Positions 44,101 to 61,935 of a stretch of DNA of 64,000 nt are shown piece by piece (position 1 is the stretch's first letter; each line of letters starts with the position of its first letter). The position numbers were made by a program, and so were the translations under genes. The notes below the pieces were generated by a model that did not search any database, was not told the DNA's origin, and was given only the letters and a program-made list of their open reading frames with translations. This DNA comes from Limisphaerales bacterium (GTDB lineage: Bacteria > Verrucomicrobiota > Verrucomicrobiia > Limisphaerales > UBA1100): positions 9,243-73,242 of the forward strand of contig CBFHWX010000002.1 of NCBI GenBank assembly GCA_965659445.1, in the 5' to 3' direction.

Positions 44101-47100
44101 TTCAAATTCATCATAACGATCTGTCTCGTAACTGGTCATCGCTAAGCGTGTGTATGCCATGGCGTTACGCGGTTGCAACTCGATGAGATGGCGGAAATGC
44201 CTCCGTGCTTCCTCAAAGCGTTCCTGTTGAAATAGCCCTGATCCCAATGCCTCTATTAGTCGAGGGTTCTTGGGATCGAGTTCCAATGCGCGTTCTAGTT
44301 CTGCAAAGGCCGCTTCCATGTTGCCTGCCTGTTGAAAGAAATCCGCTTGTTCCAGAAACTCATTCACAGGTGCTGTTTCCAAATTGGAATTCACTTGAGC
44401 GGGTGCAGGCGGGTGTTTGCGCAAGGTGTTTTCAGTGACACTCAAGTTGTGTTTTGTCAGTTCATTTTCAGGATCGTGAGTAAGCAACTGTTTGTACGTA
44501 TCCTGAGCACGTTCTACTTCTCCGGTTTTGAATTGGCAAAACGCCAAGGCCTGTAGTGCCTCTACCGTGATACCACCTTGTTCGGCAACTTGATCATATT
44601 TGCGTCGTGCCTCGACATAGCGTTCGGCGCGCACATCTAAATCGGCCAACAACTTAAGTGCCTCAGGATGGTTTGGTTCCATAATGAGCGCTTGCTGCAG
44701 AGCAGTAGTACAGGCCTCCTCGTCGCCGTCGTGAAAGGCAGCTAAGCCGTGCTGTACATGACCCGTGGCATCGTTTGGACACGCGGTTGTAAACTCTTCA
44801 AAAAGTGTTCGCGCCTTATCATACTGTGTTACAAGAAACTGCTGTGTGGCCAAGGCGCGAAGGAGGACTGGATGGCGGTCGCCAAGTTCCAGAGCCTGTT
44901 CTAAAGCCTGGATGGCTCCCGCTCGATCCTCGCGTTCGTTGCAGGCCTCTGCTTGATTCAAGGCCTTTTCAAGTGTTTTCGGTTGAGGTAGGGTATTTTT
45001 GTCCATAACTATTTCAGGTTGTTTTGTTTCAGTCAAAAAATCTGTGTTTTCACCGTAATTCGGCTCGGTACCGTACTCGATCCAGTCGAGGATCTGCCGC
45101 ACACGGATTTCAGCGGTGTGATGGCACAGCACTTTGCGCCGCGCGGTCTCGGCCATTTGCCGGGCTTGATTCGGGTTCGACTGCAGCCAACGGATTTGCT
45201 CGGCCAACTGTTCCGGTTTGTCGCGATCAAACCATAGGATTTCCTTGCCTGGGATGAACAAGGCCTGAGTCCTATCTCGTGGCGGTTTCCAGGAAATTAC
45301 CGGTCTACCGGCTGCCATGCTTTCCACCACGCGTCCGCCGTAAGATTTAAAAATGGATGGCAGATTTACTTGAGCATAACTCTGGCGTAGCCCCCTTTGC
45401 CACAGGTCATTGAGCTGTCGGCGCGTACGGCGAAGTTCCTCTAAATATTCATCCAGCAAATTCAGAGTGATCGTTTCACCTTCGAGGAGTTGCTTAATGG
45501 AAAGGGTTTGGATGTTGTCAAACCGGGTTGGTAGATTGGTACCAGTTTCCACCGGTTTCGGCCGTTGCAGCAGCCCGTGCAGGGCGGGGTGATGCAAAAG
45601 TACCTGTCGTTCCTCGCTATAAAGGGAGCCCTGAAAACTGGCAGCCGCAGCTTCGGGCAAGTGGATATTGCCGCACACATCGCGCCAACTTACAACCGGC
45701 GGGCACCATAAAGTCCTTATGGGTAAATCATTCGGAAGTGTTTCGGCGTCTCGTTCATCAAATGTGAGGACGTGTGTGCAATGTTTCAGATGACCCAAAA
45801 CCTTTTCCCGGCGTGATCTGAGTTTTGCATAGTGTGTTTCTTCCTCTGTGGAATGTTCTAAGGATTCCATGACCACTCCAACACGCACTGGCGCGATAGT
45901 TTCCAGCCATTCCATGAATTTCGGGTCGTAATCGTTGTGAGTGACCCAAATCCATACTTGGTCAAAAGTGTTGTCTTGCGTGAAAATCTCCGCCTGTCGA
46001 AGCCAGGAGCCGCGGTGGTTGGAGGGCACCCCAGCGATGGCCGGCAGCGTGAGGTGTTTGACATCGTGTGTACCTAGCGCATCTTCCAGCGCGTAAAAAC
46101 CGTTGTACGACCAAGTGTGAGCATGCTCCCAGTTTCCGCATTCAAACGAGATGAGTAGAACTTTTTTGGGATCATTCTGTTCACCCGTAGGGCAGGCCAA
46201 ATGGGAGGATGTCACTCGGCCAGATGTGAGCCGTTCTTTACCCGCAAAAGGATCTTCCGAAAGCGCCAGTTTGGTTATACCTGAGGGCAAAACTAGCGTG
46301 TCATTCTCGAAGAGACTGCTGGAGTGAGTGGAGGCAAACGTGATGCGTTGTAGATTGCGGAACCGATTTTCATAAGTTTCCCACTCGGGGATGGAAACAT
46401 TGCAGTGTTCTTGAATGTTGGTCAGAAGCCGAAAGGATGGAGTGATCAGGATACTGGAATTGAAAAGCACCTCCAGCAACGAAGTCGCTCGTTCGGCATC
46501 GCCTACGTTATTTCTTAACAGCAGTGAACGGGCGAGTGAATATTGATAACGCGGGAATTCCGGATCCCAATTTACGGCCTGTTCCAAGTGCTCAACCTCA
46601 CCGGTGTACTGGCCCAAATAATGAGCGAGAGAGGCAAGAATCAGATTTTTCAACTTGTCCGTGTCCAAGCAATTATTACCGAGTCCCAGTGTGAGAGTGT
46701 CCAGGTAGCTCCGATAATTGAAGAAGGCGCCGTGATAATCCCACGGCATGATGTCTTCGTGCGGATCAATTACACCAAAGCTCTCCGTGTTGTTTAGGAT
46801 TGACCGAACGTGGTCTAGCACCTCCTGAATGTATTCGGGTTCGCCTAAGTGCAGATCATGTCGGATTCCATTAAATCGTAAAGCCAGCGAGTCAGGGTGT
46901 GTGTCCCAACCGTGCCGATAAATCCGGTTGGCATCTTCGTTTAGCTCTGTTTGCATCCGGTTAATTTTTTTGTATTCGTCGGGATTCCTCATCAGCCTTT
47001 GGATGTCAGGTATGTCGCTCGACAAATACAAATCTACTTCCCTTGCTGCATCAATGATTTGACTAGCCCTGGGATTGACTGATTCCTTCTCTTCACACTC

Positions 47101-48504
47101 TTTCCAAGTATGTTTAAGTTGGCATTGATTAATCGTCGGTGGATAAACCCAACCTTTTTTGGCAATGACACGTTTTTGATGCGGGGCATCAGGCGATTGG
47201 CGCCACCGGCTTTGTCCAGCATTGGCAGTTTGTACGGTCAGGAAACGTAGAAATTGAGAGATGCACCGGCTTTGTTGGAATTCGCGGCGCATGATTTGAG
47301 ATCCCCGCTGGGCCTGAGGGCCAACGGTTTGCCAGTTTTCAACAAGATCGTTTATACGATTTGCCAGTTGATCGGGCTCGTAAATATAGACGCCTTCATC
47401 TTGACCGACATAAAGCCCCAGAGCGCTTCCAGCCTGTGTTAGTACTGCGCAGCCGGCGGCCAATGATTCTACTCCCCGGGAAGGCATGCTGCCAGGATGG
47501 CGAATATAGGTGAAAGAGACCTTGGATCGCATTAATTCACTCGCATAACTCAAAGGGGCAAGAAACCCATCCATGGAACGAATGTGCAGCGAGGTATCTC
47601 CCAGCAATGCCTGAAGGAGTCGGGCTTTGTCTGGATGATAATGACTGCTCATGGTTCCCGAGATGAAAACATCTACCTCACGGTTTTCTGGTGCAGTGAT
47701 GGTTTGGAAATGATTCGGGTTAATGCCGAACAGTTTTGGAAAAGTGCAAACTGGACCGTGACGCAATGAACGAACCTTTGCCCACTCCTCGGGTCCGAGT
47801 GTGATTACTTGGTCAAACGCGGGCAGCCAGGGAGCGTTGTTTTGAATATGGATATCCGTGTCCGATGTAACACCGAAAGTTGGACAATCGAGTTCCGTAA
47901 GGTCGTAGGGCAAGTATTGCCACTCGATCATATGGGCAAAATAAAAGTCCGGTTTGATGGTCAGTTCCTCCCGAATGCCGAGGAATGGCTTTTCCGGTAT
48001 ACGGCAATCAGGAACCCATAGTCCCTCACTATTTCGGCGGGTGCGTTTGATGCCCGCATGTTGCACGTGGAAATGATCGTCCTCAAAAACGTCTTCTTCC
48101 CAGACCGTTTGAGTCAGTACATTGATTTGCGGCTTCCGGATTAGCGCCAGCAAGCGCTTGGCTTCCGGCAAATTAGAATGGGACAAGACATCCGTCGCCT
48201 CCGCTTCGTTGCCATCAATCCATAATGCGGCCCCAAGGTAAAATCTTGCTTCATCGGAATTCTCTTTTTCTAGGCCAGCGACGGCGGAGTGTACTTGGCC
48301 GATCAGGCCCATTGCGGCAGAGATCTGCTGTCCATCCACTTGGGAAGAACCCGCCACGCCACAGAAGTTCCCGGCAGTAAACCAATCCTCCGGCGTGCCG
48401 AGGGAAGCATCCGTGTACGAATAAATCTCAATATCCCGGTCTGGGAATTGACTTTTCACATCCATGTTACCCAAAACAAAGCAACTTCCGGGCCAAAGGT
48501 GCAA
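41173..48504 (-). CDS. Giant (2443 aa) multi-glycosyltransferase/TPR protein: two GT-B-like modules, a TPR array, a GT2 module and a second TPR array
   Basis: This is a single uninterrupted 7.3-kb ORF. GT-B-like module 1 lies at about 47300-48465 (DVFISGT...RGVESLAAGCAVLTQ). Module 2 lies at about 45070-46175 (GGRVVESMAAGRPVISW). The first TPR array spans about 42800-44990. The GT2 module lies at about 42100-42790 (LSVCLIAKDEEKFLGNALQS...VVVVDTGSTDRT...WVLVLDADE). More TPR-like helices follow at 41173-42100. The track start at 48504 is a TTG; an alternative ATG lies at 48465. Confidence 0.85.
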   Translation of the reverse strand: MHLWPGSCFVLGNMDVKSQFPDRDIEIYSYTDASLGTPEDWFTAGNFCGVAGSSQVDGQQISAAMGLIGQVHSAVAGLEKENSDEARFYLGAALWIDGNEAEATDVLSHSNLPEAKRLLALIRKPQINVLTQTVWEEDVFEDDHFHVQHAGIKRTRRNSEGLWVPDCRIPEKPFLGIREELTIKPDFYFAHMIEWQYLPYDLTELDCPTFGVTSDTDIHIQNNAPWLPAFDQVITLGPEEWAKVRSLRHGPVCTFPKLFGINPNHFQTITAPENREVDVFISGTMSSHYHPDKARLLQALLGDTSLHIRSMDGFLAPLSYASELMRSKVSFTYIRHPGSMPSRGVESLAAGCAVLTQAGSALGLYVGQDEGVYIYEPDQLANRINDLVENWQTVGPQAQRGSQIMRREFQQSRCISQFLRFLTVQTANAGQSRWRQSPDAPHQKRVIAKKGWVYPPTINQCQLKHTWKECEEKESVNPRASQIIDAAREVDLYLSSDIPDIQRLMRNPDEYKKINRMQTELNEDANRIYRHGWDTHPDSLALRFNGIRHDLHLGEPEYIQEVLDHVRSILNNTESFGVIDPHEDIMPWDYHGAFFNYRSYLDTLTLGLGNNCLDTDKLKNLILASLAHYLGQYTGEVEHLEQAVNWDPEFPRYQYSLARSLLLRNNVGDAERATSLLEVLFNSSILITPSFRLLTNIQEHCNVSIPEWETYENRFRNLQRITFASTHSSSLFENDTLVLPSGITKLALSEDPFAGKERLTSGRVTSSHLACPTGEQNDPKKVLLISFECGNWEHAHTWSYNGFYALEDALGTHDVKHLTLPAIAGVPSNHRGSWLRQAEIFTQDNTFDQVWIWVTHNDYDPKFMEWLETIAPVRVGVVMESLEHSTEEETHYAKLRSRREKVLGHLKHCTHVLTFDERDAETLPNDLPIRTLWCPPVVSWRDVCGNIHLPEAAAASFQGSLYSEERQVLLHHPALHGLLQRPKPVETGTNLPTRFDNIQTLSIKQLLEGETITLNLLDEYLEELRRTRRQLNDLWQRGLRQSYAQVNLPSIFKSYGGRVVESMAAGRPVISWKPPRDRTQALFIPGKEILWFDRDKPEQLAEQIRWLQSNPNQARQMAETARRKVLCHHTAEIRVRQILDWIEYGTEPNYGENTDFLTETKQPEIVMDKNTLPQPKTLEKALNQAEACNEREDRAGAIQALEQALELGDRHPVLLRALATQQFLVTQYDKARTLFEEFTTACPNDATGHVQHGLAAFHDGDEEACTTALQQALIMEPNHPEALKLLADLDVRAERYVEARRKYDQVAEQGGITVEALQALAFCQFKTGEVERAQDTYKQLLTHDPENELTKHNLSVTENTLRKHPPAPAQVNSNLETAPVNEFLEQADFFQQAGNMEAAFAELERALELDPKNPRLIEALGSGLFQQERFEEARRHFRHLIELQPRNAMAYTRLAMTSYETDRYDEFESALGLAMEIDPELPEMLHFMGKMNLDQERHYDAGRIFGKLVELEPHNVQNLLALAMCLYRGGQTEAAQDTYERALQLEPENEIAQTNLLAIKQGDSLTETKTEAQESESQPLSELLQEAQAALEQKEPQRAIALLENMLSQQPSEVALLTALGNLYFSEGQLEEALEYFRRNSDLQPNEVAVQLQAATTALLVKDYETFEIYMERSLELEPENSHGLKLLATANFRAKQYKEAADLYRQALPDLPEDIEIILALGVCFHNLNDKDTSEDCFKRALEIDPNNTVAAENLKALANTTTQPEMSTQPNGHISADVLDNLCSHVQNKTTNDPANLPATALVGNLDHAQELLDQGLHIESWQETLKSIGQRPFHPEAYLHLAEIALESGDTQQAVKCLEVLKGLTPNWEIPQRALEAIKQQSPGQSPGINWPALPENPTSLRLSVCLIAKDEEKFLGNALQSITNIAHQVVVVDTGSTDRTVAIAEEHGAEVHQFEWCDDFSAARNFALEHARGDWVLVLDADEILPTGEIDHLCDDLSRPNHLGYRLPLVNKIKVDQDDNETADGICYVPRLFRNAPSLHFVGRVHEQIYSSVLARQIDWQMDSGIGTSCLHHFGYAPEVKKERDKVRRNLKLLEMSIKEQPPEPTLLMNYALDLFNDGQFEAALEKDQEAFALLSKHTREDILPEVRERLVSVYCYHLLQAELYDELVEIATSTLAIDCGPTASIHYVHGLALLKQQRFEEAIEPFRECITKRDEPAFTARFMGVEGHGPHHLLADCLAKTGQEDSAITEYEQALGMAPEATSVRHGYAQYLTELGQPEKAVKLLFDAIENGSIDARLWSLGCHIVNGHLKDSEVALHWTDCAIDEFPEHPEIRKQRGVALLTVGNFKDALALFEKIPQHPLNEGARILCRIAIGQTAQLSDPDKEQLISTAFMEWYRRLLERGQNEAANRLAKNIDALEPVLPTATMMLIEAMSTES

Positions 48505-48638
48505 AAAAAAGCCGTGGGATTAGTAAATATCAACTAAAATGCCTATTTTACCTTTTTATCAATAAAAATCAGATTTTAGTTTGAATTCTCAAATAACCAC
48601 TTTGCAGGTGAGAAAGGCGACAAAAAAACTGATGGTCA

Positions 48639-48655
48639 CGGCATATTAACTGCTG
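48639..48655 (+). promoter_or_regulatory. Degenerate sigma-54-like element (CGGCATattaaCTGCTG) upstream of the radical SAM gene
   Basis: GG and GC are retained at consensus spacing and the TGCTG extension is shared with the flagellar sites. The first consensus T is a C. Confidence 0.3.
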
Positions 48656-48776
48656 TGACATGGCCATGGTTTCAACGATTGAAACGACAGATTTACCGAC
48701 CAAAGCAAAGAAAAACGCTCCCATAAAAAGGGGTGTGGACGGCGGTGATTTAGTCGTTTAGCATCATATTCGCGTT

Positions 48777-50396
48777 ATGCGTGTTCTATTCGTAGTTTAT
48801 GATAATGGGTCGTATGATCACATTTTCCCAATGGGACTTGGGGCAATTGGGGCTATCTTAAAGAGAGATGGGCACGAAATTAGTGTCTGGAATCAAGATA
48901 TGCATCATTGGCCAGATGAGTACTTAACAGAGTATTTAGATAAAAATAAATTTGATTTGGTTATCGTGAGTTTGATAGCTGGTTATTACCAATATAGAAG
49001 AATGTTGGGACTATCTAAAGCAATCAATAAATCTAAACAACGGCCAACTTATGTAATCGGAGGTTACGGACCAACACCTGAGCCAGAATATTGGCTCAGG
49101 AAACTAGAATGCGACATAGTAGGGCTAGGAGAGGGAGAAATTACAATATCTGAGCTAACAAAAACGCTAGATAATAATGAACCATTGGAACAGGTTCCCG
49201 GAATTGCGTGGATAGATGTAAGTGGCAAATTTCAGGAAACACCAAGGCCTCCACAAATCGAAGATTTAGATTCTCTTCCGTGGTATCCGTATGAATTGTT
49301 CCCAATGGAGTATTACAGGCTCATGGAACTTCCCAGAGCTTCAGCAACTGATTTTCGCATGCCAATGATGTCTGCAAGAGGTTGCACTTTTAAATGTACG
49401 TTTTGTTACAGGATGGACCCTGGCTACAGAAAGCGTGATCCAGTAGCATTACTTGATGAGGTGGAGTTTCTTTATAAGGATTACGGTATAACAAGAATTA
49501 CATTTCAGGATGATTTATTAATGTCATCTGTTGAACATACAATTGAGGTTTGCCGCGAGTTTGAAAAGCGCAAACTGCCAATTACATGGGATTGTAATGG
49601 ACGGTTAAATTATTGCAGCAAAGAATTGTTGGAGTATATGAGTAAGGTGGGATGTGTTTATATTAATTATGGAATTGAATCAATGGATCCCAATGTGCTT
49701 AACAGCATGAAAAAGGGCTTGTCCCCTAAAACGATTACTCAAGGAATAGAATGGACATTGGATGTTGGAATAAGCCCAGGCCTTAATTTTATATTTGGTT
49801 ATCCTGATGATAATATGGATACCATAAAAAAATCAGTGAACTTTTTACTGAAGTACGATGATTTTTCAGAAAAAAGAACTATTCGACCTGTAACTCCATA
49901 TCCGGGATCGCCCATTTATTATGACGCTATCAATAAGGGTTTACTGGATAAAGATAATCCCGCAGCGGATTTCTACGAAAACAAACATCTTAATTCTGAT
50001 CTGATATCCGTAAATTTAACAAAACTTCCCGATGAAGAATTCTATAAGTGTATTCAATGGGCAAACAAAACACTTATGGAGAATTACTTCAATAATCAGC
50101 GCGAGAACACCCTTGCCCAAATAGACTATTTATATACTACAAAAGACACTTCTTTTAGGGGTTTTAGGGGCATGCATGATGACACGACAATGGAACATGC
50201 CAAGGGGAAAAATAATGATTTAAAAAACTGGGAGGGGTCTAAAAAATCTGATGGTGACAGATTTTCAACTCATGGGCTTGGTAAATCTAGGCTTAAGAAA
50301 GAAATTAAAGTAAAAGATGGAAATGCGGGGAATGCCAGTAAAAAGTTTAAACATGAATATAAAAAAATAATATCAAGAGAAAAAGTGTTGAAATGA
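48777..50396 (+). CDS. B12-binding (class B) radical SAM enzyme
   Basis: The N-terminal cobalamin-binding-like Rossmann segment reads FDLVIVSLIAGYY...VIGGYGPT. The CxxxCxxC cluster motif is ARGCTFKCTFCY (49382-49405). The C-terminal tail is Lys-rich. The gene is visibly AT-rich. Confidence 0.9.
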   Translation: MRVLFVVYDNGSYDHIFPMGLGAIGAILKRDGHEISVWNQDMHHWPDEYLTEYLDKNKFDLVIVSLIAGYYQYRRMLGLSKAINKSKQRPTYVIGGYGPTPEPEYWLRKLECDIVGLGEGEITISELTKTLDNNEPLEQVPGIAWIDVSGKFQETPRPPQIEDLDSLPWYPYELFPMEYYRLMELPRASATDFRMPMMSARGCTFKCTFCYRMDPGYRKRDPVALLDEVEFLYKDYGITRITFQDDLLMSSVEHTIEVCREFEKRKLPITWDCNGRLNYCSKELLEYMSKVGCVYINYGIESMDPNVLNSMKKGLSPKTITQGIEWTLDVGISPGLNFIFGYPDDNMDTIKKSVNFLLKYDDFSEKRTIRPVTPYPGSPIYYDAINKGLLDKDNPAADFYENKHLNSDLISVNLTKLPDEEFYKCIQWANKTLMENYFNNQRENTLAQIDYLYTTKDTSFRGFRGMHDDTTMEHAKGKNNDLKNWEGSKKSDGDRFSTHGLGKSRLKKEIKVKDGNAGNASKKFKHEYKKIISREKVLK

Positions 50397-50484
50397 TTTT
50401 ACATGCACTTATCTAGCTTAAGCCTATACCATGCAGATTTGTGTAAAATCCAAATATGTTACTTAATAGTAAATTACGTAAACA

Positions 50485-51654
50485 ATGCGGAAAAAAGTGT
50501 TCTTGTTAGTTGGGTTTGAAGGTTTGCCCGAACTGTTGACTCAATACAATCCAGACGAACCGTCTGCATTTATTTTTCAAAACAATCCAGGCAATCGTTT
50601 TTTTGTTGAAAAGATCCTCAAGAAAAAAGAGTGTAGCCTGTCTGTTAATGGTTTCCCTTCTAATGTAGTAGTTTTTGATAAGGACCCGGAAAGCAATAAA
50701 GGTCAATCATTGGCCTTCCAAGATTTCACCCCTAATCAATGGTCTTCTTTTTTGGGAATCCCTGAGTTTGTGAAACAAATCAGGGATTACATCAATAAGC
50801 TGCAGCCAATATCGGAAATAGTTTGGTACAATCGCCAGGACCTTTGGGTGTCGTTAGTACTGAGTATTGCTAAGGATATGAAAATCCCAACTTTACTAAT
50901 ACAATCAGAACGCAATTCACAAATAAAATTTAATTATTGGAACAATGAGAAATTGAGAGAAATCAATCCGAAAACGGCGGGATTTATTGATCAACTGAAT
51001 AGCGCGCTTTCTCAGAAACTGTTATTAGCGGACATATACTTGGATAACATTGATGATTGCATGCTCTATTCAGGGTTAAGCCCGGCGTTAGAGGGGCATA
51101 GGCAATTGGATGTATCTTTGGATGAAGTTGCAGAAAATATAAATAAATTAAAAAGAGAATTAAATTATTCATGTGATGTGAAACCCAACAAATCAAACTC
51201 TGAAATATTATTTGTTGATGATGGAATGTCATTTGATGATCACGGGTATAACTGGGAAAAGACTCGTGATAATCTCAAGAGATATTTTATTGATTTGCCC
51301 ACTGATGTCCCTGTAACAATAAAGATGAGGCAAGTCAGGGATGAAGATGAAGGCACAAAGAATCAACTTGTTGAGTTATTCCCGGCGCGGTCAAAAATTA
51401 GATTTGCCCAATCTTTTATGCCCTTAGAGTTTATGATTAGCGATTTTGATATGGTCTTTTACATGCTTACCTCCTCTATGCTGTATCCATTCAAAACCAG
51501 ACGTATAAGTTTATTCAAATTATTAGCTGTGGAAAAAGAAAGTTTTCACGCCCGTTGGAAAATCTATATGAAATATATTAAATCATTATCTTCTGGTGAT
51601 TCTCTAATTATCACAGAAAGTAAATCAAGGGTAGAAGACCTGGTTCCTCATTAG
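50485..51654 (+). CDS. Hypothetical protein (389 aa), AT-rich; possible GT-B-type transferase (weak)
   Basis: It is a clean ORF in the same AT-rich islet as the radical SAM gene. N-terminal KKVFLLVGFEG and C-terminal DFDMVFYMLTSSMLY loosely resemble GT-B or capsule-type transferases. No firm motif was found. Confidence 0.5.
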   Translation: MRKKVFLLVGFEGLPELLTQYNPDEPSAFIFQNNPGNRFFVEKILKKKECSLSVNGFPSNVVVFDKDPESNKGQSLAFQDFTPNQWSSFLGIPEFVKQIRDYINKLQPISEIVWYNRQDLWVSLVLSIAKDMKIPTLLIQSERNSQIKFNYWNNEKLREINPKTAGFIDQLNSALSQKLLLADIYLDNIDDCMLYSGLSPALEGHRQLDVSLDEVAENINKLKRELNYSCDVKPNKSNSEILFVDDGMSFDDHGYNWEKTRDNLKRYFIDLPTDVPVTIKMRQVRDEDEGTKNQLVELFPARSKIRFAQSFMPLEFMISDFDMVFYMLTSSMLYPFKTRRISLFKLLAVEKESFHARWKIYMKYIKSLSSGDSLIITESKSRVEDLVPH

Positions 51655-51895
51655 GCTACTTCCAAAGAATTTGATATTGAATTCAGAAAGTCAAAGTGAG
51701 TTGATCTGCGAATCGACGGGCGCGAAGCGTTTAATGCATATATCGTTGTCCTTTTCGTATGGTCCACCGGAAAAAGGGGGGGGCAAAGCGCGCACTTAGT
51801 CGCGGTGAAAGCTACATCAAGTATATCCCAACAGCGCAATGCAGGCGCAACTCGAAAGTGGCCAGATTTGATCAGTTATCGGAAGGAATAATTGC

Positions 51896-52429
51896 ATGTG
51901 TGGACTGAACTTGGAGAGATTGGAATCGATTGTTTGTGATTTTGATGGTGTGCTGACAGACAATCGCGTGTGGACGGATGCTGAGGGGCGTGAAATGGTA
52001 GTGTGTCATCGGGGTGATGGTTTGGCATTCGATGTGTTGCGAGCGATGCCCGTGAAAGTATTTATTCTTTCCACTGAAACGAACCCGGTAGTTGCGCGAC
52101 GGGCACAAAAGCTGTGTGTGCCTTGCTTGCAGTCGGTTGGTTGCAAAGCGGAGGCATTGCGCGAGTTATCGGCAGAACATCAATTTTCATTGGGGCACAC
52201 GTTGTTTATAGGTAACGATTTAAATGATCTGGCAGCAATGGATTTATGTGGGTACCGTGCGTGTCCGGCGGACGCGCATCCGGTAGTTCGATCGCGCGCG
52301 CATATAGTCACCGGTGTGGTGGGCGGTAATGGGGTGGTCCGGGAATTAGTGGAGAAACACTTGAGCATAGACATGGACAAGGCGTTGCGGAAAGGCGCTG
52401 GTGGGGAAGAAGGGCGAGAATGTTCATAA
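51896..52429 (+). CDS. HAD-IIIA phosphatase of the KdsC / ulosonate-phosphate phosphatase family
   Basis: The HAD motif I is IVCDFDGVLTDNRVW. Also present are GDGLAFDVLR, FIGNDLNDLAAM and GGNGVVRELVE, as in KdsC and KDN-9-P phosphatase. It overlaps the NeuB-like gene by 10 nt. Confidence 0.85.
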   Translation: MCGLNLERLESIVCDFDGVLTDNRVWTDAEGREMVVCHRGDGLAFDVLRAMPVKVFILSTETNPVVARRAQKLCVPCLQSVGCKAEALRELSAEHQFSLGHTLFIGNDLNDLAAMDLCGYRACPADAHPVVRSRAHIVTGVVGGNGVVRELVEKHLSIDMDKALRKGAGGEEGRECS

Positions 52430-53262
52430 TCGCTGAGATCGGAATTAATCACAATGGGGATGTAGACATTGCGCAGGCGTTAATCTGTACGGCCAAGGAA
52501 GCGGGATGTGACGCGGTGAAATTTCAGAAGCGAACCTTGGAGGTGGTGTATCCGGCGGAGGTGCTTGACGCGCCACGGGAGAGCCCTTGGGGTACAACCA
52601 ATCGCCAGCAGAAAGAAGCACTTGAGTTTGGCCGAAAGGAGTATGAGCAGATCGATGCGTTTTGCCGCGAACTAAACATTGAATGGTTTGCTTCGGCCTG
52701 GGACAAGGAGAGCCAAATTTTTCTGCGGCAGTTTAATCTTAAGTACAACAAGATTGCCTCGGCGATGATTGTAGATGAATCGCACTTGCGCCAAGTGGCG
52801 GAGGAAGGGAAGCATACCTTCATTTCCACAGGGATGAGCCAGATGACGGACATTGAACGGGCGGTGACGGTGTTTCGTGAATTGGGCTGTTCCTTTGAGT
52901 TGATGCATACCATCTCGACATATCCTATGAAAGATGAAGACGCTAACCTGAACTGCATACCCATGCTTCGTAAAAAATTCCAATGTGATGTGGGCTACAG
53001 CGGTCATGAGTCGGGACTGGCAGTATCTTATGCGGCTGCGGCGTTGGGGATCAGTTCGTTGGAACGGCACATTACTTTGGATCGAGTGATGTACGGGTCC
53101 GATCAGGCGGCTTCTGTAGAGCCAGTCGGCCTGCGCATGCTGGTGGGTGCGGTGCGCAAGATTGAGGAGGCGATGGGCGACGGGGAGAAATGCCTGCTGG
53201 AAAGCGAGAGACCTATCGCCCAAAAGTTGCGGTTGCATTTGCCTTGGGAGTCTGGTGAATGA
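52420..53262 (+). CDS. NeuB-family (sialic/ulosonic acid) synthase, TIM-barrel only, without the C-terminal SAF/AFP-like domain
   Basis: MFIIAEIGINHNGDVDIAQALICTAKEAGCDAVKFQKRT is the NeuB N-terminal signature. GYSGHESG and LERHITLD are also present. At 280 aa it is about 60-70 aa shorter than canonical NeuB, PseI or LegI. Confidence 0.85.
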   Translation: MFIIAEIGINHNGDVDIAQALICTAKEAGCDAVKFQKRTLEVVYPAEVLDAPRESPWGTTNRQQKEALEFGRKEYEQIDAFCRELNIEWFASAWDKESQIFLRQFNLKYNKIASAMIVDESHLRQVAEEGKHTFISTGMSQMTDIERAVTVFRELGCSFELMHTISTYPMKDEDANLNCIPMLRKKFQCDVGYSGHESGLAVSYAAAALGISSLERHITLDRVMYGSDQAASVEPVGLRMLVGAVRKIEEAMGDGEKCLLESERPIAQKLRLHLPWESGE

Positions 53263-53514
53263 AATTACACAAACGAAAGCCCGTCGGTTGTGGCTCGAGC
53301 GCATGTAGGGGTGGTTGCTGCTCAAGCATAAAAAGGCCGGTATCAGACGCATTCGACGAGGTGCTGGCGTGATGAGCTTCCCAAGGCATAGCAGATTTAC
53401 CGGATATATTTTTCCGACGGCGGGATTTGGATTTTAATGGCGTGATGACCAGACAGGCTTATAAGGAAGACGAAGGGGTCGCGGTTTTTTGCGAACAGGT
53501 TGAACTGGGGGGGA

Positions 53515-54285
53515 ATGTTTGGAATGCCTGACGCTGCGCATGATTCCACGGTGGCCATCATTCCCGCCAGATCGGGATCGAAATCCGTTCCTGATAAGAA
53601 CATCGCTGATCTTGCTGGCCATCCTGTGTTGGCTTACAGCATTGCCGTGGCGAGATTGAGTCAGGAAATCGATCGAGTGTTGGTTTCAACTGACAGTAAT
53701 GACTATGCCGACCTTGCCCGGGAATATGGAGCGGAAGCTCCATTTTTGCGACCGGCGGAGTTGGCTTCTGACACTGCGGGGGATTTGGAAGTCCTACGCC
53801 ATGTCATGGACTGGATGAGCGACCATGAACATCATGTGCCGGAGTACTGGGTGTATCTTCGACCGAGTACTCCGCTGCGGGATCCCGTGTTGGTGGACCA
53901 AGCCATCCGGCAGTTCAAAGATACCGGCGAAGCAGTATCTCTGCGCTCGGCGCATCCCGCTCCAGAAAGTCCTAGGAAGTGGTTTCGCAAATTGGGTAAT
54001 AACTTTTTTCCCCTGATGGACGGCGTTACCATGGCGGAAACCGACCAGCCAAAAGAGGCCTTTGCCACGGCTTTTGTTCCGGATGGTTATGTGGATGTTT
54101 TCAAAACCTCCCACGTGCGCGGCCGAGGAGCACTGCACGGTGATCGTATCATGGCGTTTGTCTCACCTGTTAACACGGAAATCGACAGTGCCGAAGAGTT
54201 GGACTATCTGCGCCACCAACTGGAGAGTAACGGATCGCCGTTGTTGGAGTTCTTAAATAAACTAGAGAGAGGAGGAACGCCGTAG
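53515..54285 (+). CDS. CMP-ulosonic acid (acylneuraminate-type) cytidylyltransferase
   Basis: AIIPARSGSKSVPDKNIADLAGHPVLAYSI...RVLVSTDS...FLRPAELASD is the NeuA/KdsB-family N-terminal pattern. The start is uncertain: the track gives a TTG at 53500, and ATGs lie at 53515 and 53524. Confidence 0.85.
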   Translation: MFGMPDAAHDSTVAIIPARSGSKSVPDKNIADLAGHPVLAYSIAVARLSQEIDRVLVSTDSNDYADLAREYGAEAPFLRPAELASDTAGDLEVLRHVMDWMSDHEHHVPEYWVYLRPSTPLRDPVLVDQAIRQFKDTGEAVSLRSAHPAPESPRKWFRKLGNNFFPLMDGVTMAETDQPKEAFATAFVPDGYVDVFKTSHVRGRGALHGDRIMAFVSPVNTEIDSAEELDYLRHQLESNGSPLLEFLNKLERGGTP

Positions 54286-55667
54286 TGGCTGAATCTACCA
54301 TGGTCGCCGCGCCGGTGGAGGTGCCTCAAGTGGACACGCCGCATCGCCGCATCGTCACGCCGCTTCCAGTTCCGGAAAGTATAGCCCTGTTTGAAAGGCT
54401 TGAACGGACGGAGGCGCGCTCCATGCACGGTCAGCTGCCAGTGATCTGGGATCGGGCTGATGGTATTCATGTTTACGATCCCTGGGGCAACATGTGGCTG
54501 GATTTCACCAGCACCATTTGTGTCGCTAACGCCGGCCACGGTCACCCAGCGGTGGTGGAGGCCATCCGTCACCAGATAGATCGGCCGCTTCTGCACACCT
54601 ACACCTTTGCCCATGCCGAACGAGTGGCGTTTCTGGAATACCTGATTGCCCACACCCCTTCCCAATTTGAAAAGGCGTTTCTGGTATCTGCTGGATCGGA
54701 GGCGGTGGAGGCTTCGCTGAAGCTGATGCGCCTACACGGCCAAGCAGCCGGCAAGCGCCGAGGGGGCGTGCTCTGTATTGAGGGCAACTGGCATGGCCGC
54801 ACGCTGGGCGCACAGATGATGGCTTCCAACCCGGTCCAGCGCGAATGGATTGGCTACCATGATCCCAACCTGCATCACTTGCCCTTTCCGTTTCCTTGGG
54901 TGACAGAGATCGCCAACGATCCCGTGGCCTTTTTCCGGAAGAGCCTGGAGGAACTGGAGCAGACCCACGGTCTGGATCCGACACGGGATTTATGCGGCGT
55001 GATGCTTGAAACCTACCAAGGATGGGGCGGTTTTTTTTACCCCCCCGAATTCGTGCTGGAGTTGGTCCGCTTCGCCCGAGAGCATGATCTGCTGGTCACT
55101 TTTGATGAAGTGCAATCCGGTTTTGGGCGGACCGGTGAGCTATTCGGTTACATGCATTATGGCGTGGAGCCGGACATCATCTGTTGCGGCAAGGGCGCCA
55201 GCTCCAGCGTGCCGTTGGCATTTGTAATGGGATCGCGGAAGATCATGGACCTACCCGAATTTGGCTCCATGAGTTCCACGCACTCAGCCAACCCCTTGGC
55301 CTGTGCCGCAGGACGGGCCAGTTTTGAGGTGTTGCTTAACGAGGGGTTGATTGACAATTCCCGCAGTCTGGGTGCTCAAATGCACGAGCGCTTGCAGGCA
55401 CTTCCGCTGCGCCACCCCCAACACATCCGTTCAGTGGAAGGGCGAGGCCTTATGGCCGGGATTATCTTTTACAATGAAGATGGCTCCAGCGGCACGGACC
55501 TATGCAACCAGATGTGTGAGCGGGCTATGCAGCGCGGATTGCTGGTGGTGAAGACAGGGCGCGAATCTATAAAGCTAACGCCGCCCCTGAACATCGATGA
55601 GGCGGCTTTGTTTGAAGGAATCGAAGTGCTGGAGGAAGTGGTGAACCAGGTGATCGCCGATGATTAG
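54285..55667 (+). CDS. Class III PLP-dependent aminotransferase
   Basis: Motifs are SAGSEAVEASLKLMR, FDEVQSGFGRTGELFG and the Lys motif DIICCGKGASS. The GTG start overlaps the upstream stop; an alternative ATG lies at 54300. Confidence 0.9.
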   Translation: MAESTMVAAPVEVPQVDTPHRRIVTPLPVPESIALFERLERTEARSMHGQLPVIWDRADGIHVYDPWGNMWLDFTSTICVANAGHGHPAVVEAIRHQIDRPLLHTYTFAHAERVAFLEYLIAHTPSQFEKAFLVSAGSEAVEASLKLMRLHGQAAGKRRGGVLCIEGNWHGRTLGAQMMASNPVQREWIGYHDPNLHHLPFPFPWVTEIANDPVAFFRKSLEELEQTHGLDPTRDLCGVMLETYQGWGGFFYPPEFVLELVRFAREHDLLVTFDEVQSGFGRTGELFGYMHYGVEPDIICCGKGASSSVPLAFVMGSRKIMDLPEFGSMSSTHSANPLACAAGRASFEVLLNEGLIDNSRSLGAQMHERLQALPLRHPQHIRSVEGRGLMAGIIFYNEDGSSGTDLCNQMCERAMQRGLLVVKTGRESIKLTPPLNIDEAALFEGIEVLEEVVNQVIADD

Positions 55668-56094
55668 CGCCCTGCGTCATACCGGGCTGGTGGTGCAAGA
55701 TCTAGAGTCCGCCATCGGATTTTACGAGGGTTTGGGGCTGCGTCTTTGGCGGCGTGAGACAGAGACAGGGCCATTTATTGAGCAGGTTACCGGTTTGTCT
55801 GGTGTACGTCTCGAATGGGCAAAACTCAAGGCCCCAGACGATTCGCTTTTGGAACTACTGCAATATCATTCACACCCCGCAAACGCTCTGCATGAAATTG
55901 CCCCCGTCCAAACTCATGGCTGTTCGCATGTCGCTTTCACCGTGGCAGATGTGGAAGCCACCTGTGCGCGTGTTAAAGAACTTGGAGGCACGGTGACCAA
56001 CCCTCCCGCACTATCATCTGATAAATGCGTGTGTGTGGCCTACGGGCACGATGTAGATGGGGTTCTAATCGAACTGGTGGAGGAACTGTCTTGA
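55660..56094 (+). CDS. VOC (glyoxalase/bleomycin-resistance/epimerase fold) family protein
   Basis: 144 aa. LRHTGLVVQDLESAIGFYEGLGL and GCSHVAFTVADVEATCARVKELGG are typical paired beta-alpha-beta-beta-beta modules. It overlaps the aminotransferase stop. Confidence 0.75.
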   Translation: MISALRHTGLVVQDLESAIGFYEGLGLRLWRRETETGPFIEQVTGLSGVRLEWAKLKAPDDSLLELLQYHSHPANALHEIAPVQTHGCSHVAFTVADVEATCARVKELGGTVTNPPALSSDKCVCVAYGHDVDGVLIELVEELS

Positions 56095-56978
56095 ACAGTA
56101 CTCTGTGTTGTATCGTTTGTGGTGGGAAACAATTTGAAACAGTTTATTGCGGGGCCATTCGTGCTGGATCGTATGGTAAGATTACTGAGGATGTGCATGA
56201 GGTAGTAGAGTGTAACGGATGTGGTTTTCGACACTTGAAGGAGTTTGTTCAGATAAATTATGAGACTGACTCCTACCGTGAGAATTATAACAATTCTGCC
56301 GAAGTGGAGGATTACTTGTCTACGCATACTTCCGAACAGGAATTGCGCCTGAAACGCATTGGCCTCAACCGGTTTCGTGAAAAAAAGGTACTCGATTTTG
56401 GCTGTGGAGGCGGTGCGTTTTTGGATGCCGTCAAAGACGTTGCCTACGCCACGATAGGCATTGAGCCCATGACCAGTTTCCACTCAAGCCTCCTCGAACG
56501 AGGCCATCAAGTAGTGGTGTCTGCTAATGACCCGGATTTGACTGACGGTATGGCGGATGTGGTAGTGTCTTTTGGAGTCATTGAACACGTCGAGGATCCA
56601 CTGGCTCACCTATTCGACATTCATCGCTTCCTTACCCCCGGCGGAGTAGCATTCCTGGAAACCGACAACCTGAAGGAGATTCTTATGTGTTTGGCGCTCC
56701 CGGAATTTGAGCGGTTCTTCTATCGCACAGCGCATGCTTGGTACTTCTCCTCTGGGACTCTGGAAACTTTGTGCCACAAGGCTGGTTTTGCGACCGTACT
56801 TCCGGGCCATCGGCATGGCTACGATTTGTCGAACTTTATTCTTTGGCTGCGTGATCGAGAACCCACGGGGATAGGTCGTTTACGGTTGCTGAGTGGAGCT
56901 TCTGACCAGGAATGGAAGGCGACCTTGGAAAAGGCCGGCTTGGCTGATTTGCTTTTATTTGAACTTACCAAGGATTGA
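56091..56978 (+). CDS. Class I SAM-dependent methyltransferase with an N-terminal Cys4 ribbon
   Basis: The SAM motif I is VLDFGCGGGAFLD. The N-terminus has CCIVCGG...ECNGCGF. The proposed TTG start at 56091 overlaps the VOC stop (tTGA). The track start at 56025 would overlap the VOC gene by 70 nt. Confidence 0.8.
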   Translation: MNSTLCCIVCGGKQFETVYCGAIRAGSYGKITEDVHEVVECNGCGFRHLKEFVQINYETDSYRENYNNSAEVEDYLSTHTSEQELRLKRIGLNRFREKKVLDFGCGGGAFLDAVKDVAYATIGIEPMTSFHSSLLERGHQVVVSANDPDLTDGMADVVVSFGVIEHVEDPLAHLFDIHRFLTPGGVAFLETDNLKEILMCLALPEFERFFYRTAHAWYFSSGTLETLCHKAGFATVLPGHRHGYDLSNFILWLRDREPTGIGRLRLLSGASDQEWKATLEKAGLADLLLFELTKD

Positions 56979-57063
56979 AGTGTATTTGGGGTTTTGTGAC
57001 AAAAGTCTGATGGTGACCGTGCTTGGTGTAGTATTTATGGCTGAAGGCTTCCAAGTTTAGCAT

Positions 57064-57918
57064 ATGATCTGTAATTTGAATAAGCGCATTGGATTCATAC
57101 AGGGCCGGTTATCTCCGTTAGTGAATGGCCGAATTCAAGCTTTTCCAAAAGATTATTGGTGTGAAGAGTTTTCTTTGGCACAGGGACAAGGCATTTGTCT
57201 GATGGAGTGGACATTGGATCATGACGCACTTCACGAAAACCCCCTCCTCACGACTGATGGACGAACAGAGATGCAAAGGCTTTCTGATATTCACCAGGTA
57301 TCTATCCCTTCTCTTACGGGTGATTGTTTTATGCAGTTTCCATTTTGGAAGGCTCCAAAGGCTCAACGGGAAAGTTTGGAGCATGACTTTCTGGCGGTTA
57401 TTGATGCTTGCTCTATTGTGGGGATTGAATTTGTAGTTGTTCCTTTGGTGGATAATGGAAGTCTTGAGGCAACAAAAGAAGAGAATGTTCTGGTTGAGTT
57501 TATGGAACGGCATGCTGAGGTTTTTCGAGCGAGAAAGGTATCTATTTTATTTGAGTCAGATTTCGTTTCTGCCGAGCTCAAACGTTTAATTAAAACATTT
57601 CCGGCGGGAGTTTTTGGCATTAACTACGACACGGGAAACAGCGCATCTCTCGGTTATCAGTTTCAGGATGAAATTGAAGCATACGGAGATCGAATCCTGA
57701 ATGTGCATATTAAGGACCGACTTCTTGGTGGGACGACGGTACCTTTGGGTACTGGTAACGCGAAATTGCCAGAGACAATTTCTGCGTTAGAACGGCAAGG
57801 GTATGAGGGTAATTATATTCTTCAGACGGCCCGTGCTCTTGATAATGACCATGTTGGTGCGATACACCGTTACCGCGAAATGGCAAAGGATTGGATAAGT
57901 CAGGCCAGATGGAATTAG
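57064..57918 (+). CDS. Xylose-isomerase-like TIM-barrel protein (sugar or sugar-phosphate isomerase/epimerase)
   Basis: 284 aa. IGFIQGRLSP...EWTLD, FESD and LNVHIKDRL resemble the UlaE/SgbU/hexulose-phosphate isomerase type. Confidence 0.7.
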   Translation: MICNLNKRIGFIQGRLSPLVNGRIQAFPKDYWCEEFSLAQGQGICLMEWTLDHDALHENPLLTTDGRTEMQRLSDIHQVSIPSLTGDCFMQFPFWKAPKAQRESLEHDFLAVIDACSIVGIEFVVVPLVDNGSLEATKEENVLVEFMERHAEVFRARKVSILFESDFVSAELKRLIKTFPAGVFGINYDTGNSASLGYQFQDEIEAYGDRILNVHIKDRLLGGTTVPLGTGNAKLPETISALERQGYEGNYILQTARALDNDHVGAIHRYREMAKDWISQARWN

Positions 57919-58691
57919 GACTCGAAAATTCACGAGTGTTAATTACCGGTTCATCGCGTGGAATAGGTCATGGGATTGCTGCCTCTTTTATGGAAGAAGG
58001 AGCAATCGCGGTCTTGACCGGCAGAGATGAGAAAGATTTAACTGCTGCTCAAGAAATTCTTATCGGTGAGCATGGTGCAGATCATGTGGAGGCATACGCA
58101 GGAAACCTCGGTGAGCCTGCAGTCCGATCTGGATTGTATGAATATTTAGCTCCTCGTGGATTAGATCATCTTGTGTGCAACATTGGCTCAGGTCGGTCGG
58201 TTCCGGCATTCCAGGAAAATGATGAAGAGTGGCGCCGTATGTTTGATGTAAATATTGTGCAAGCTGCTGGTGTATTGCGACAGCTGCGCGACCTTTTGGT
58301 TGCGAGTGCGCAACGTGGGCGGGATACAAGCGTTACATTTATTGGGTCGATTTGCGGGATGGAAGCACTGGGTTGCCCTTTGCCTTATGCATCTGCAAAA
58401 GCAGCGTTATGGGCATATGCAAAAAATCTGGTCCAACCACTGGCGAAAGATGGCATTCGGGTCAATCAGGTTACTCTGGGTAATATCTTGTTCCCAGGAT
58501 CGACATGGGAGAATAAGCTGGATGAGGGGGAGGCAAGTGTACAACAAATGCTGGAAAAGGAAGTAGCCATGCGTCGTCTTGGCACCGTGCAAGAAGTGTC
58601 GGCTGCCGTTGTTTTTCTCGCATCGAAGCAGGCAGCATTTATTACTGGTGCAAATCTGGTTGTCGACGGCGGCCAGACAAGGGGGTTATGA
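57909..58691 (+). CDS. Short-chain dehydrogenase/reductase (SDR)
   Basis: The cofactor motif is VLITGSSRGIGHGIA and the catalytic motif is YASAKAAL. The ATG at 57909 overlaps the upstream stop. Confidence 0.85.
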   Translation: MELGLENSRVLITGSSRGIGHGIAASFMEEGAIAVLTGRDEKDLTAAQEILIGEHGADHVEAYAGNLGEPAVRSGLYEYLAPRGLDHLVCNIGSGRSVPAFQENDEEWRRMFDVNIVQAAGVLRQLRDLLVASAQRGRDTSVTFIGSICGMEALGCPLPYASAKAALWAYAKNLVQPLAKDGIRVNQVTLGNILFPGSTWENKLDEGEASVQQMLEKEVAMRRLGTVQEVSAAVVFLASKQAAFITGANLVVDGGQTRGL

Positions 58692-58706
58692 ATATAGGGG
58701 GAGAAA

Positions 58707-61827: not shown

Positions 61828-61887
61828 CTAATGTTTCAATCCACGACCGTATCAATACAGAATCTCACCGCCTCTTCGTCCGTCAAG

Positions 61888-61904: not shown

Positions 61905-61935
61905 CTTTTGGTGAAAAATCGGTAATTTGACTTAA

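Follow-up and report, generated by a model that had tools for sequence, protein, structure and literature searches.

The 64,000-nt stretch of Limisphaerales DNA analyzed here (the window) carries, at positions 48505–51654, an AT-rich islet of two genes encoding a 539-residue class B radical S-adenosylmethionine (SAM) enzyme with a B12-binding domain and a rare 389-residue protein with a predicted GT-B fold. The islet is imported and has been exchanged repeatedly by recombination, as follows from its composition, the decoupled synonymous divergence of its genes and its mosaicism taken together. On the reading that we consider moderately probable as a whole, the islet is a cassette of two genes, exchanged horizontally and placed at the promoter-proximal end of a nonulosonic acid (NulO; sialic-acid-like) operon beside the flagellar genes of a marine, Pedosphaera-like verrucomicrobium; the B12-type radical SAM enzyme would tailor a NulO and the GT-B protein would act as the transferase that installs it from its cytidine monophosphate (CMP)-activated form.

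Analysis of base composition within the window, in which the islet genes were compared with the 44 other open reading frames (ORFs), reveals a sharply bounded deviation. The interval 48505–51654 has 36.7% G+C against 51.5% in the rest of the window and no other 3150-nt window is as low (mean over all of them 0.509, sd 0.034); outside the islet the lowest value is 0.452. An earlier sequence-only reading of this DNA had described an AT-rich islet of about 3 kb from three sampled lines (18/60, 25/60 and 41/60 G+C); these counts are reproduced exactly, and the islet is the lowest 3-kb stretch of the window. Specifically, the radical SAM gene (GC 0.372; third-codon-position GC, GC3, 0.326) and the 389-residue gene (GC 0.363, GC3 0.367) depart from the other ORFs (mean GC 0.520, sd 0.030; mean GC3 0.568, sd 0.069) by z-scores of about −5 (GC) and −3 to −3.5 (GC3), and the comparison of sliding-window GC and codon usage proposed by that reading likewise sets the islet apart within the window. 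Low G+C extends through all three codon positions and through the spacers at 48505–48776 and 50397–50484. At the left edge, G+C drops within at most about 100 nt of the start of a giant divergent gene (48504), and at the right edge it is back up within at most about 100 nt past the stop codon of the 389-residue gene (51654).

The genes of the islet have diverged at a different pace from those around it. Sister-strain contigs L005–L007 (homologous loci are given L numbers) have the same gene order as the window and hold the islet in the same position, and the flanking genes of the window match those of L005/L006 at 95–99% protein identity with a synonymous divergence (dS) of 0.016–0.045. For the same strain pair, the synonymous divergence of the islet genes is 6–20 times that of the flanks: the radical SAM enzyme is 95% identical in protein sequence with a dS of 0.27, and the 389-residue protein is only 84% identical. 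Within the latter gene lies a mosaic, recombined segment at 50911–51510 (forward strand), which shows 74–85% nucleotide identity to L006 against 93–100% on either side; dS is 0.91 over codons 141–345 and 0.06 over codons 1–140. Among four alleles of the protein, that of the window is 100% identical to P0004 and 78% to P0002 over residues 1–60, and 90% identical to P0002 and 69% to P0004 over residues 201–345, and the gene is an allelic mosaic. The ratio of nonsynonymous to synonymous divergence (dN/dS) is 0.08–0.3 throughout, so both islet genes are under purifying selection and are still functional genes. The nearest radical SAM homologues (84–85% identity; L023, L024) lie on contigs of 0.37–0.39 GC, and orthologues at 63–69% identity occur in low-GC (0.26–0.37) marine genomes, including two Pelagibacteraceae single-cell genomes; a scan of genome contigs gave only 4 loci. 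The separate acquisition that had been suggested from the letters alone is thus upheld by foreign composition, by a dS 6–20 times that of the flanks and by the mosaic 389-residue gene. A direct repeat at 48725–48756 and 51771–51802 (72% over 32 nt) was considered as a target duplication and rejected, as 124 of 500 shuffles reach its score, and look-ups of the NeuB and haloacid dehalogenase (HAD) sequences from the adjoining operon returned nothing informative on an islet-free strain.

The first gene of the islet (48777–50396, forward strand) encodes the class B radical SAM enzyme, which belongs to an uncharacterized marine family associated with NulO genes. Residues 16–127 match the B12-binding domain PF02310 with 46.6 bits (cutoff 32.1), the Radical_SAM domain PF04055 is matched with 77.7 bits (cutoff 29.5), and the cluster motif CTFKCTFC begins at residue 203, with C203-x3-C207-x2-C210 invariant in 14 homologues, which bears out the class B architecture read from the sequence beforehand. 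In the family placement by HMMER that was called for then, no curated NCBIfam family is reached, all 25 listed matches lying far below cutoff, and the best of them is HpnJ with 126.4 bits against a cutoff of 577.6. The AprD4 model is matched with 73 bits against a cutoff of 500, and GenK- and Fom3-type models are not among the top NCBIfam matches; the characterized class B subfamilies in the comparison comprised HpnJ, BchE, HpnR, PhpK, ApyD, BzaD, AprD4, Mmp10-like and others. By sequence, the closest solved structure is that of AprD4 (PDB 6FD2), aligned over residues 163–412 with an E-value of 9e-19 and 70 bits, while its N-terminal domain gives weak alignments with those that bind cobalamin in TokK, OxsB and CysS.

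More than 3500 homologues of the enzyme were found, mostly in marine metagenomes, with 60–70% identity across lineages labeled Pelagibacteraceae and SAR202, and a 14-member alignment of the family (A5) has a mean column identity of 70%. In addition to the CX3CX2C motif, five cysteines are invariant (C112, C259, C273, C280 and C293), and a conserved C-terminal element, N484-W-E...D492..R495-F, follows a variable linker and precedes a Lys-rich tail. The extra cysteines and the C-terminal element may mark an auxiliary cluster or a docking peptide. Few substrates of class B radical SAM enzymes are known, and most characterized enzymes that combine a B12-binding domain with a radical SAM domain are methylases. 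The enzyme of the window resembles the class B methylases GenK, GenD1 and Fom3 and the solved TokK, CysS, TsrM and OxsB in its N-terminal Rossmann B12 domain followed by a CX3CX2C core, and it resembles the sugar and phosphonate methylases in sitting in a biosynthetic cluster for a modified sugar. It differs from them in the five extra invariant cysteines and the C-terminal NWE...D..RF motif, in the unusually high conservation of its family across phyla, and in the proposed NulO substrate class, for which the literature searched holds no characterized class B enzyme. With AprD4 it shares the best sequence match over the radical SAM core and, in the role proposed for it, an amino-sugar substrate, whereas the alignment to AprD4 leaves out its N-terminal domain.

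Support for the use of cobalamin comes from the surroundings of orthologous genes. Nine SAR11-type loci carry an AdoCbl-II riboswitch (RF01689), scoring 80–97 bits against a gathering threshold of 36.5, upstream of an operon encoding a TonB-dependent receptor and a DUF6580 membrane protein, and this operon stands directly beside a cluster that begins with the radical SAM orthologue. The loci are L014:5710–11527, from the Pelagibacteraceae single-cell genome AG-325-C21, and L050, L055, L056, L057, L073, L076, L088 and L097. In L014, the cluster directly follows a 16S-tRNA-tRNA-23S rRNA operon, a site that we take to be the position of the SAR11 surface-glycan hypervariable region. The general view of SAR11 bacteria is that B12 is of no use to them; the riboswitch–receptor operon suggests B12 uptake and use in SAR11-type cells, and its position offers indirect but specific support for real use of B12 by the radical SAM family. 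On these grounds, together with the B12-binding domain match and the N-terminal alignments, the enzyme of the window probably uses cobalamin. Another low-GC marine contig (L008:10001–16452) encodes, after the radical SAM enzyme, an Aldolase_II fusion to a short-chain dehydrogenase/reductase (SDR), a PNP_UDP_1 phosphorylase/nucleosidase, a phosphoribosyltransferase and an IF-2B protein resembling methylthioribose-1-phosphate isomerase. Together these four genes resemble a pathway for the salvage of 5'-deoxyadenosine or methylthioadenosine, the by-products of radical SAM turnover.

The association with NulO biosynthesis rests on a neighborhood set of 80 metagenomic loci and 4 others, whose ORFs were clustered and of which 32 have at least 6 kb of flank. 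Among these 32 long-flank loci, NeuB is present in 19 (about 60%), a 4,6-dehydratase-like epimerase in 20, a NeuC-like Epimerase_2 protein in 16 and a DegT aminotransferase in 11, the main CMP-transferase cluster occurring in 10 and a second type in 4; NeuB and a CMP-transferase are found together near the radical SAM gene in L008, L010 and L013. Recurrent immediate neighbors are an MsbA-like ATP-binding cassette (ABC) exporter (22 loci), a CBS-nucleotidyltransferase (9) and a PP-loop amidotransferase (7). The functional link to a CMP-ulosonic-acid pathway that had been proposed earlier therefore finds support in conserved synteny across many unrelated genomes. A SPASM-domain radical SAM protein adjoins the B12-type enzyme in 12 of the 84 loci (L010:1377–2420, L058:2863–4053 and others), and SPASM proteins also occur in clusters with the 388-residue homologue of the second islet protein (L001–L004; L001:6329–7228) and with P0138 (L021:5541–6611).

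Seven genes are common to the window and to L027, L028 and L061, encoding the radical SAM enzyme, a HAD phosphatase, a short NeuB, a CMP-transferase, a class-III aminotransferase, a glyoxalase and an AP_endo2 protein. Their products are 31–69% identical to those of the window, the gene orders differ, and the contigs are low in G+C (0.365 for L027 and L028, 0.31 for L061); the module spans L027:248–6677 and L061:7909–20819. Because this module is kept in all three relatives, the radical SAM enzyme appears to be a core tailoring enzyme of the NulO pathway and not an optional extra, so the view of it as an add-on to the pathway does not hold for these low-GC marine genomes. In the window, the rest of the module is host-like in composition and only the radical SAM slot and its neighbor are AT-rich, and for this reason the AT-rich copy appears to be an allele regained or substituted from a low-GC donor and not a new function.

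The second gene of the islet (50485–51654, forward strand) encodes the 389-residue protein, a member of a rare GT-B-fold family that, from an AlphaFold2 (AF2) model, Foldseek and hhalign, is probably a CMP-NulO-dependent glycosyltransferase. It has no Pfam or NCBIfam match, in line with the earlier impression that it carries no recognizable motif, and its rarity is pronounced: a search of 5.8 billion clustered proteins gave only 8 homologues, and the 1.8 billion representatives contained one cluster at 50% identity. A profile search adds 14 distant full-length relatives at about 15% identity, which form the distant family A3, as opposed to the close family A1 of the protein itself; a further homologue search with an A2 profile yielded 2 additional sequences, and an NCBIfam scan with A2 matched only an unrelated GT2 extension. 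A first AF2 model built from 7 sequences was poor (pLDDT 55, weak Foldseek matches) and was replaced by a 20-sequence model, which shows a confident fold of two Rossmann domains (pLDDT 86.2, pTM 0.87). Searched against the PDB with Foldseek, this model gives 94 matches at E ≤ 1e-3, with GT-B matches at a probability of 1.0, and 49 of the 50 listed matches are GT-B glycosyltransferases, pseudo-glycosyltransferases or 2-epimerases, among them UDP-N-acetylglucosamine (UDP-GlcNAc) 2-epimerases, trehalose-6-phosphate synthases, UGTs and UrdGT2; the exception is a complex-I chain. As modeled, the 389-residue protein folds as a GT-B enzyme.

The remote relatives of the protein lead toward CMP-ulosonic-acid transferases. 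Family A1 aligns to A3 by hhalign with a probability of 99.6% and an E-value of 1e-24 over 313 columns. Three A3 members match PF07388, the GT38 polysialyltransferase family, one of them above the gathering score (27.4 bits, cutoff 23.3), and another, P0138, sits in a NeuB cluster (L021). Profiles A3 and A2 both match KpsC (6mgb), a CMP-Kdo-dependent transferase (Kdo, 3-deoxy-D-manno-octulosonate), at E 0.001–0.002, the matched region taking in strands one and two of the nucleotide-binding domain along with the HP position, a P-x-E element and an S-S element. Bacterial sialyltransferases are typified by an HP motif in the nucleotide-binding domain and an upstream D/E-D/E-G motif in the N-terminal half (PMC2169525). 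At the HP position, the window protein and six close homologues read K280-[LMT]-R282-[QRP], and most A3 members read K-P-H-P/Y. An invariant D245-D246-G247 lies in the C-terminal domain, aligned to 'LLIDQ' of KpsC; it was rejected as the D/E-D/E-G motif, being 35 residues before the HP position as against about 125 in GT38 and GT52. Some 125 residues ahead of HP, where it would be expected, the 389-residue protein shows no identifiable motif of this kind. A semi-conserved acidic residue after an N-domain strand (E142 in the window protein, 'VD' in A3) is a candidate motif residue.

The protein thus resembles the GT38 (PF07388), GT52 and GT80 sialyltransferases and the KpsC/KpsS beta-Kdo transferases in its GT-B fold, in a C-terminal pattern of a strand that runs into an acidic or polar loop, a second strand, K-P-H-P (in the relatives), P-x-E and S-S, and in the placement of its gene in a cluster with NeuB and a CMP-transferase. 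It differs from them in having Arg282 for the HP histidine, in the lack of a family-model match for the window protein itself and in its extreme rarity. The best reading of these similarities is a very rare GT-B lineage among CMP-ulosonic-acid transferases, with Arg in place of the HP-motif His, and the use of CMP-NulO as donor by the second gene product is narrowly favored. An earlier guess that the partner of the radical SAM enzyme could be a transferase is strengthened by the GT-B fold and by the distant relationship to enzymes of the GT38 and KpsC types. The core module of L027, L028 and L061 does not include the gene, so the gene appears to be accessory and not a biosynthetic step. Two clusters of unannotated radical SAM neighbors from other loci, c15 (e.g., the 381-residue protein of L013) and c14, show no detectable relationship to the 389-residue family (hhalign probability 0.1–0.4%).

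The two islet genes appear to share composition and location without forming an obligate pair. In L001, L002 and L004, the 389-residue family adjoins a different B12-type radical SAM enzyme, in L003 and L020 it stands without an adjoining one, and the radical SAM family mostly occurs without the 389-residue gene. A co-evolving pair of radical SAM enzyme and glycosyltransferase was accordingly rejected, the L001 enzyme being only 25% identical to that of the window and none lying beside the gene in L003 and L020.

The wider setting of the islet combines a flagellar region with the NulO operon. The first 36 kb of the window (1–36 kb) encode FlgI/H/A/G/F, FliS, FliD, MotAB, FliA, FliF-J, FlgE, FliL-R and FlhB/A/F, an essentially complete flagellar set, with three ORFs that have no Pfam match (6554–7384, 276 aa, between fliS and fliD; 23019–23846; 23849–25288). 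The FlhA of the window has a counterpart of at least 90% identity in a metagenome-assembled Pedosphaera sp. genome, so the host is taken to be a marine verrucomicrobium. After flhF come a protein with tetratricopeptide repeats (TPR) and a GT9-like domain, a DUF4836 protein, a giant 2443-residue protein and then the islet. The giant protein (41173–48504, reverse strand, divergent from the islet) contains by Pfam many TPR repeats together with GT1-like and GT2 domains and is a candidate glycosyltransferase scaffold for protein or polysaccharide; in L001–L004, the 388-residue homologue likewise lies next to a giant gene homologous to this one. The 477-residue protein (36459–37892, reverse strand) has, by Pfam, N-terminal TPR repeats and a C-terminal GT9-like domain. 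Flagellin glycosyltransferases of the FlmG type have been described as modular (PMC7591256), and the 477-residue protein resembles them in its modular layout.

Downstream of the islet, the NulO operon on the forward strand begins with the HAD phosphatase (51896–52429), which resembles KdsC and Kdn-9-phosphate phosphatases (NF007019 and NF058599, about 88 bits, below cutoffs) and has orthologues beside the radical SAM gene in L027, L028 and L061. It is followed by the short NeuB-family synthase (52420–53262; 280 aa, no SAF domain; PF03102, 225 bits), which is 67–69% identical to its L027 and L061 orthologues and would form NulO or NulO-9-phosphate, and by the CMP-ulosonic-acid cytidylyltransferase (53500–54285; PF02348, 72.9 bits), the N-terminal half of which resembles PseF. 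The class-III aminotransferase (54285–55667; PF00202, 297.7 bits) and the glyoxalase/vicinal oxygen chelate protein (55660–56094; PF00903, 52.6 bits) both have orthologues in L027 and L061. At 56025–59540, a SAM methyltransferase, an AP_endo2/xylose-isomerase-like TIM barrel and two SDRs are assigned by Pfam and stand in the same order in L005 and L018, the AP_endo2 and SDR proteins having orthologues in L027 and L061 as well. The methyltransferase ORF (56025–56978) has its first 70 nt in common with the end of the glyoxalase gene, and its true start is probably downstream of 56025, because the orthologues are called as 241 aa (L005) and 295 aa (L018). Genes for GT2 enzymes and sulfotransferases lie beyond the operon. 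No PseB/C/G or LegB/C/G homologues are present in the NulO operon; with its HAD phosphatase, a NeuB lacking SAF, a class-III aminotransferase in place of DegT, a glyoxalase-fold protein, AP_endo2 and SDRs, it looks like an unusual, undescribed phosphosugar route that is kept in three divergent genomes. The earlier placement of the islet inside a glycan island holds in that the NulO operon lies beside it, and needs qualifying in that the island adjoins a complete flagellar gene set.

Compared with the Maf-type flagellin glycosylation of Campylobacter and Helicobacter and the FlmG type of Caulobacter, the window is alike in having a NulO operon beside flagellar genes and TPR-glycosyltransferases nearby. 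It differs in that no Maf (PF01973) protein or flagellin gene is seen in the 64-kb window, in that its route appears to be phosphosugar-based and not a UDP- or GDP-sugar pathway to pseudaminic (Pse) or legionaminic (Leg) acid, and in the B12-type radical SAM enzyme, which is not part of the described systems.

The non-coding stretches at the edges of the islet differ in character. The left one (48505–48776), between the divergent giant gene and the radical SAM gene, is AT-rich (GC 0.35–0.43), and its promoter-like sites are not above shuffled expectation. The right one (51655–51895), upstream of the operon beginning with the HAD and NeuB genes, is host-like and contains the G8 run with which the islet had been said to end, located at 51776–51783. 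Over 51655–51895, the window is 98% identical to L005–L007 with the G tract itself as the sole exception, where the relatives have A4GGAGGGCC for the A5G8 of the window. Phase variation at this run was rejected, since three sister contigs have an interrupted tract 2 bases shorter and there is no length series; the run is particular to this strain, with no indication of phase variation. The window has two more long G runs, a G9 at 31609–31617 inside the fliR coding sequence and a G8 at 6265–6272, which is intergenic between fliS and the unannotated ORF 6554–7384, so the G8 upstream of the NulO operon is not the only such run. Promoter and terminator scans gave nothing above shuffled expectation, and Rfam gave nothing in the islet at E ≤ 1, nothing in the window at gathering score and no RNA genes. 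Milder low-GC patches lie downstream, namely the AP_endo2 gene (57064–57918; GC 0.44, GC3 0.39) and the interval 60610–63981, which encodes a 405-residue protein of unknown function and a 681-residue double sulfotransferase (GC 0.455–0.464), and the right-hand part of the island may be compositionally heterogeneous throughout.

Several observations weigh against reading the islet as an exchanged NulO-tailoring and transfer cassette, and each touches a different part of it. No integrase, tRNA or significant flanking repeat is found in or beside the islet, which would fit a native segment whose low G+C stems from gene-specific constraint or local mutation bias and not from horizontal acquisition; the lack of mobility genes, the presence of the islet in the same place in L005–L007, which makes it not a very recent insertion, and the mild patches at 57–58 kb and 61–64 kb point the same way. 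This origin is nevertheless very improbable, given that all three codon positions and the intergenic spacers are affected, that a dS 6–20 times that of adjacent genes in the same strain pair indicates allele import and not bias, and that the nearest radical SAM homologues lie on contigs of 0.37–0.39 GC. On the side of chemistry, the 64-kb window holds no cobalamin riboswitch and no B12 uptake gene, the literature searched yielded no description of a B12-type radical SAM enzyme in NulO biosynthesis, and, with AprD4 as the closest solved sequence, the fold by itself establishes neither methylation nor cobalamin use. AprD4 is the radical SAM diol-dehydratase of apramycin C3'-deoxygenation, which is not known to use cobalamin or to methylate. 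The C-methylation put forward by the sequence-only reading accordingly stands as one option only, and methylation as the chemistry of the enzyme is a tentative proposal. It is also possible, if slightly less likely than methylation, that the enzyme belongs to the NulO pathway and performs another radical transformation of the sugar with cobalamin optional, such as the dehydration or deoxygenation known from AprD4, the ring contraction known from HpnJ, epimerization or C–C bond formation. The sequence match to AprD4 over residues 163–412 (70 bits) is consistent with this, as are the best NCBIfam match to HpnJ (126 bits), an enzyme that modifies a hexosamine moiety, the five extra invariant cysteines, which could ligate an auxiliary cluster or donate H atoms and are unusual for class B methylases, and the presence in the operon of a conventional SAM methyltransferase (56025–56978). 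Methylation is favored, on the other hand, by an N-terminal domain above the Pfam B12-binding threshold, by its alignment to the cobalamin domains in TokK and CysS, which are true methylases, by the cobalamin-riboswitch-regulated outer-membrane receptor adjoining orthologues in SAR11 loci and by the general prevalence of methylases among enzymes of this architecture.

For the 389-residue protein, the adverse points are that it matches no sialyltransferase model (none at E ≤ 1), that its top structural matches are UDP-GlcNAc 2-epimerases and not transferases (E about 1e-7, TM 0.43–0.47), that its link to sialyltransferases is transitive and weak at the last step (E about 1e-3 to 3e-6), and that Arg282 replaces the HP-motif His carried by its relatives. 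These structural matches, together with the lack of a recognizable NeuC- or PseG-like gene in the window operon, would suit a divergent GT-B hydrolase or 2-epimerase of nucleoside diphosphate (NDP)-sugars (NeuC-, LegG- or PseG-like) that supplies a hexose for NeuB. Such an enzyme is improbable: hhalign of A1 and A3 against 20 NeuC-like Epimerase_2 proteins from related loci gives a probability of 0.1%, the family connects instead to PF07388 and KpsC, both CMP-ulosonic-acid transferases, and L027, L028 and L061 possess the pathway module without the gene; moreover, the HAD phosphatase and short NeuB would imply a sugar-phosphate route that can do without an NDP-sugar hydrolase, and mosaic alleles are typical of transferases that set surface structure. 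Flagellin is tentatively proposed as the acceptor, because of the flagellar neighborhood and because L001 holds flagellin, FliW and CsrA about 8 kb from the 388-residue homologue, flanking the sugar genes; against this, no flagellin gene (Flagellin_N/C) was detected in the 64-kb window. A comparably tentative alternative is that the modified NulO is destined for a capsule, a lipopolysaccharide (LPS) O-antigen or an S-layer glycan and that the flagellar neighborhood is coincidental. SAR11 bacteria are not known to be motile, and in SAR11-type loci the same radical SAM enzyme clearly serves a non-flagellar surface glycan; it lies beside an MsbA-like ABC exporter in 22 loci and in polysaccharide-type clusters without flagellar genes nearby, the SAR11 locus follows the rRNA operon at the presumed surface-glycan hypervariable position, and the window itself also encodes sulfotransferases and GT2 enzymes. 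Opposed to this are the direct succession of the window cluster to flhF and two TPR-glycosyltransferases of FlmG-like architecture, and the flagellin, FliW and CsrA genes that flank the sugar genes in L001.

Under the favored reading of an exchanged two-gene cassette, the operon would act in the order of sugar-phosphate-modifying enzymes, short NeuB, HAD phosphatase and CMP-transferase. The radical SAM enzyme would use a [4Fe-4S] cluster and SAM to generate a 5'-deoxyadenosyl radical that abstracts a hydrogen from an unactivated carbon of the sugar, its N-acyl group or a precursor, most likely followed by transfer of a methyl group from methylcobalamin (C-methylation). The product of the second gene would then transfer the finished CMP-NulO to its acceptor, which may be flagellin or a glycan already on flagellin, with the nearby TPR-glycosyltransferases supplying protein targeting, and this gene would diversify by recombination, as surface-glycan transferases do.

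Both enzyme superfamilies are known, and glycan loci commonly carry foreign islets; the novelty lies in a conserved and abundant class B radical SAM family dedicated to NulO pathways, of which the literature searched holds no description, and in a very rare GT-B lineage whose HP motif has Arg for His. NulOs are major determinants of bacterial surface identity, acting in phage reception, grazing, immune mimicry and flagellar assembly, and the variation known among them concerns their stereochemistry, their amidino groups and the acyl groups on N and O. That a conserved radical SAM enzyme of the B12 type belongs to NulO pathways points to a modification at the level of carbon not yet described, and the family would define a concrete enzyme–substrate pair for class B radical SAM enzymology. 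It is possible, rather than probable, that the family performs cobalamin-dependent radical C–H functionalization of NulOs, most simply C-methylation, and that the resulting undescribed sugars are widespread on abundant ocean bacteria, including SAR11. Since SAR11-type loci hold an AdoCbl-II riboswitch and a TonB receptor beside the radical SAM gene, the family would also link surface-glycan synthesis to B12 supply in marine plankton, which bears on who needs B12 in the ocean, while the mosaic alleles of the 389-residue protein show how such islands diversify. If the reading is correct, this verrucomicrobium would import ocean surface chemistry together with a dedicated, rapidly recombining transferase for its flagellum or envelope.

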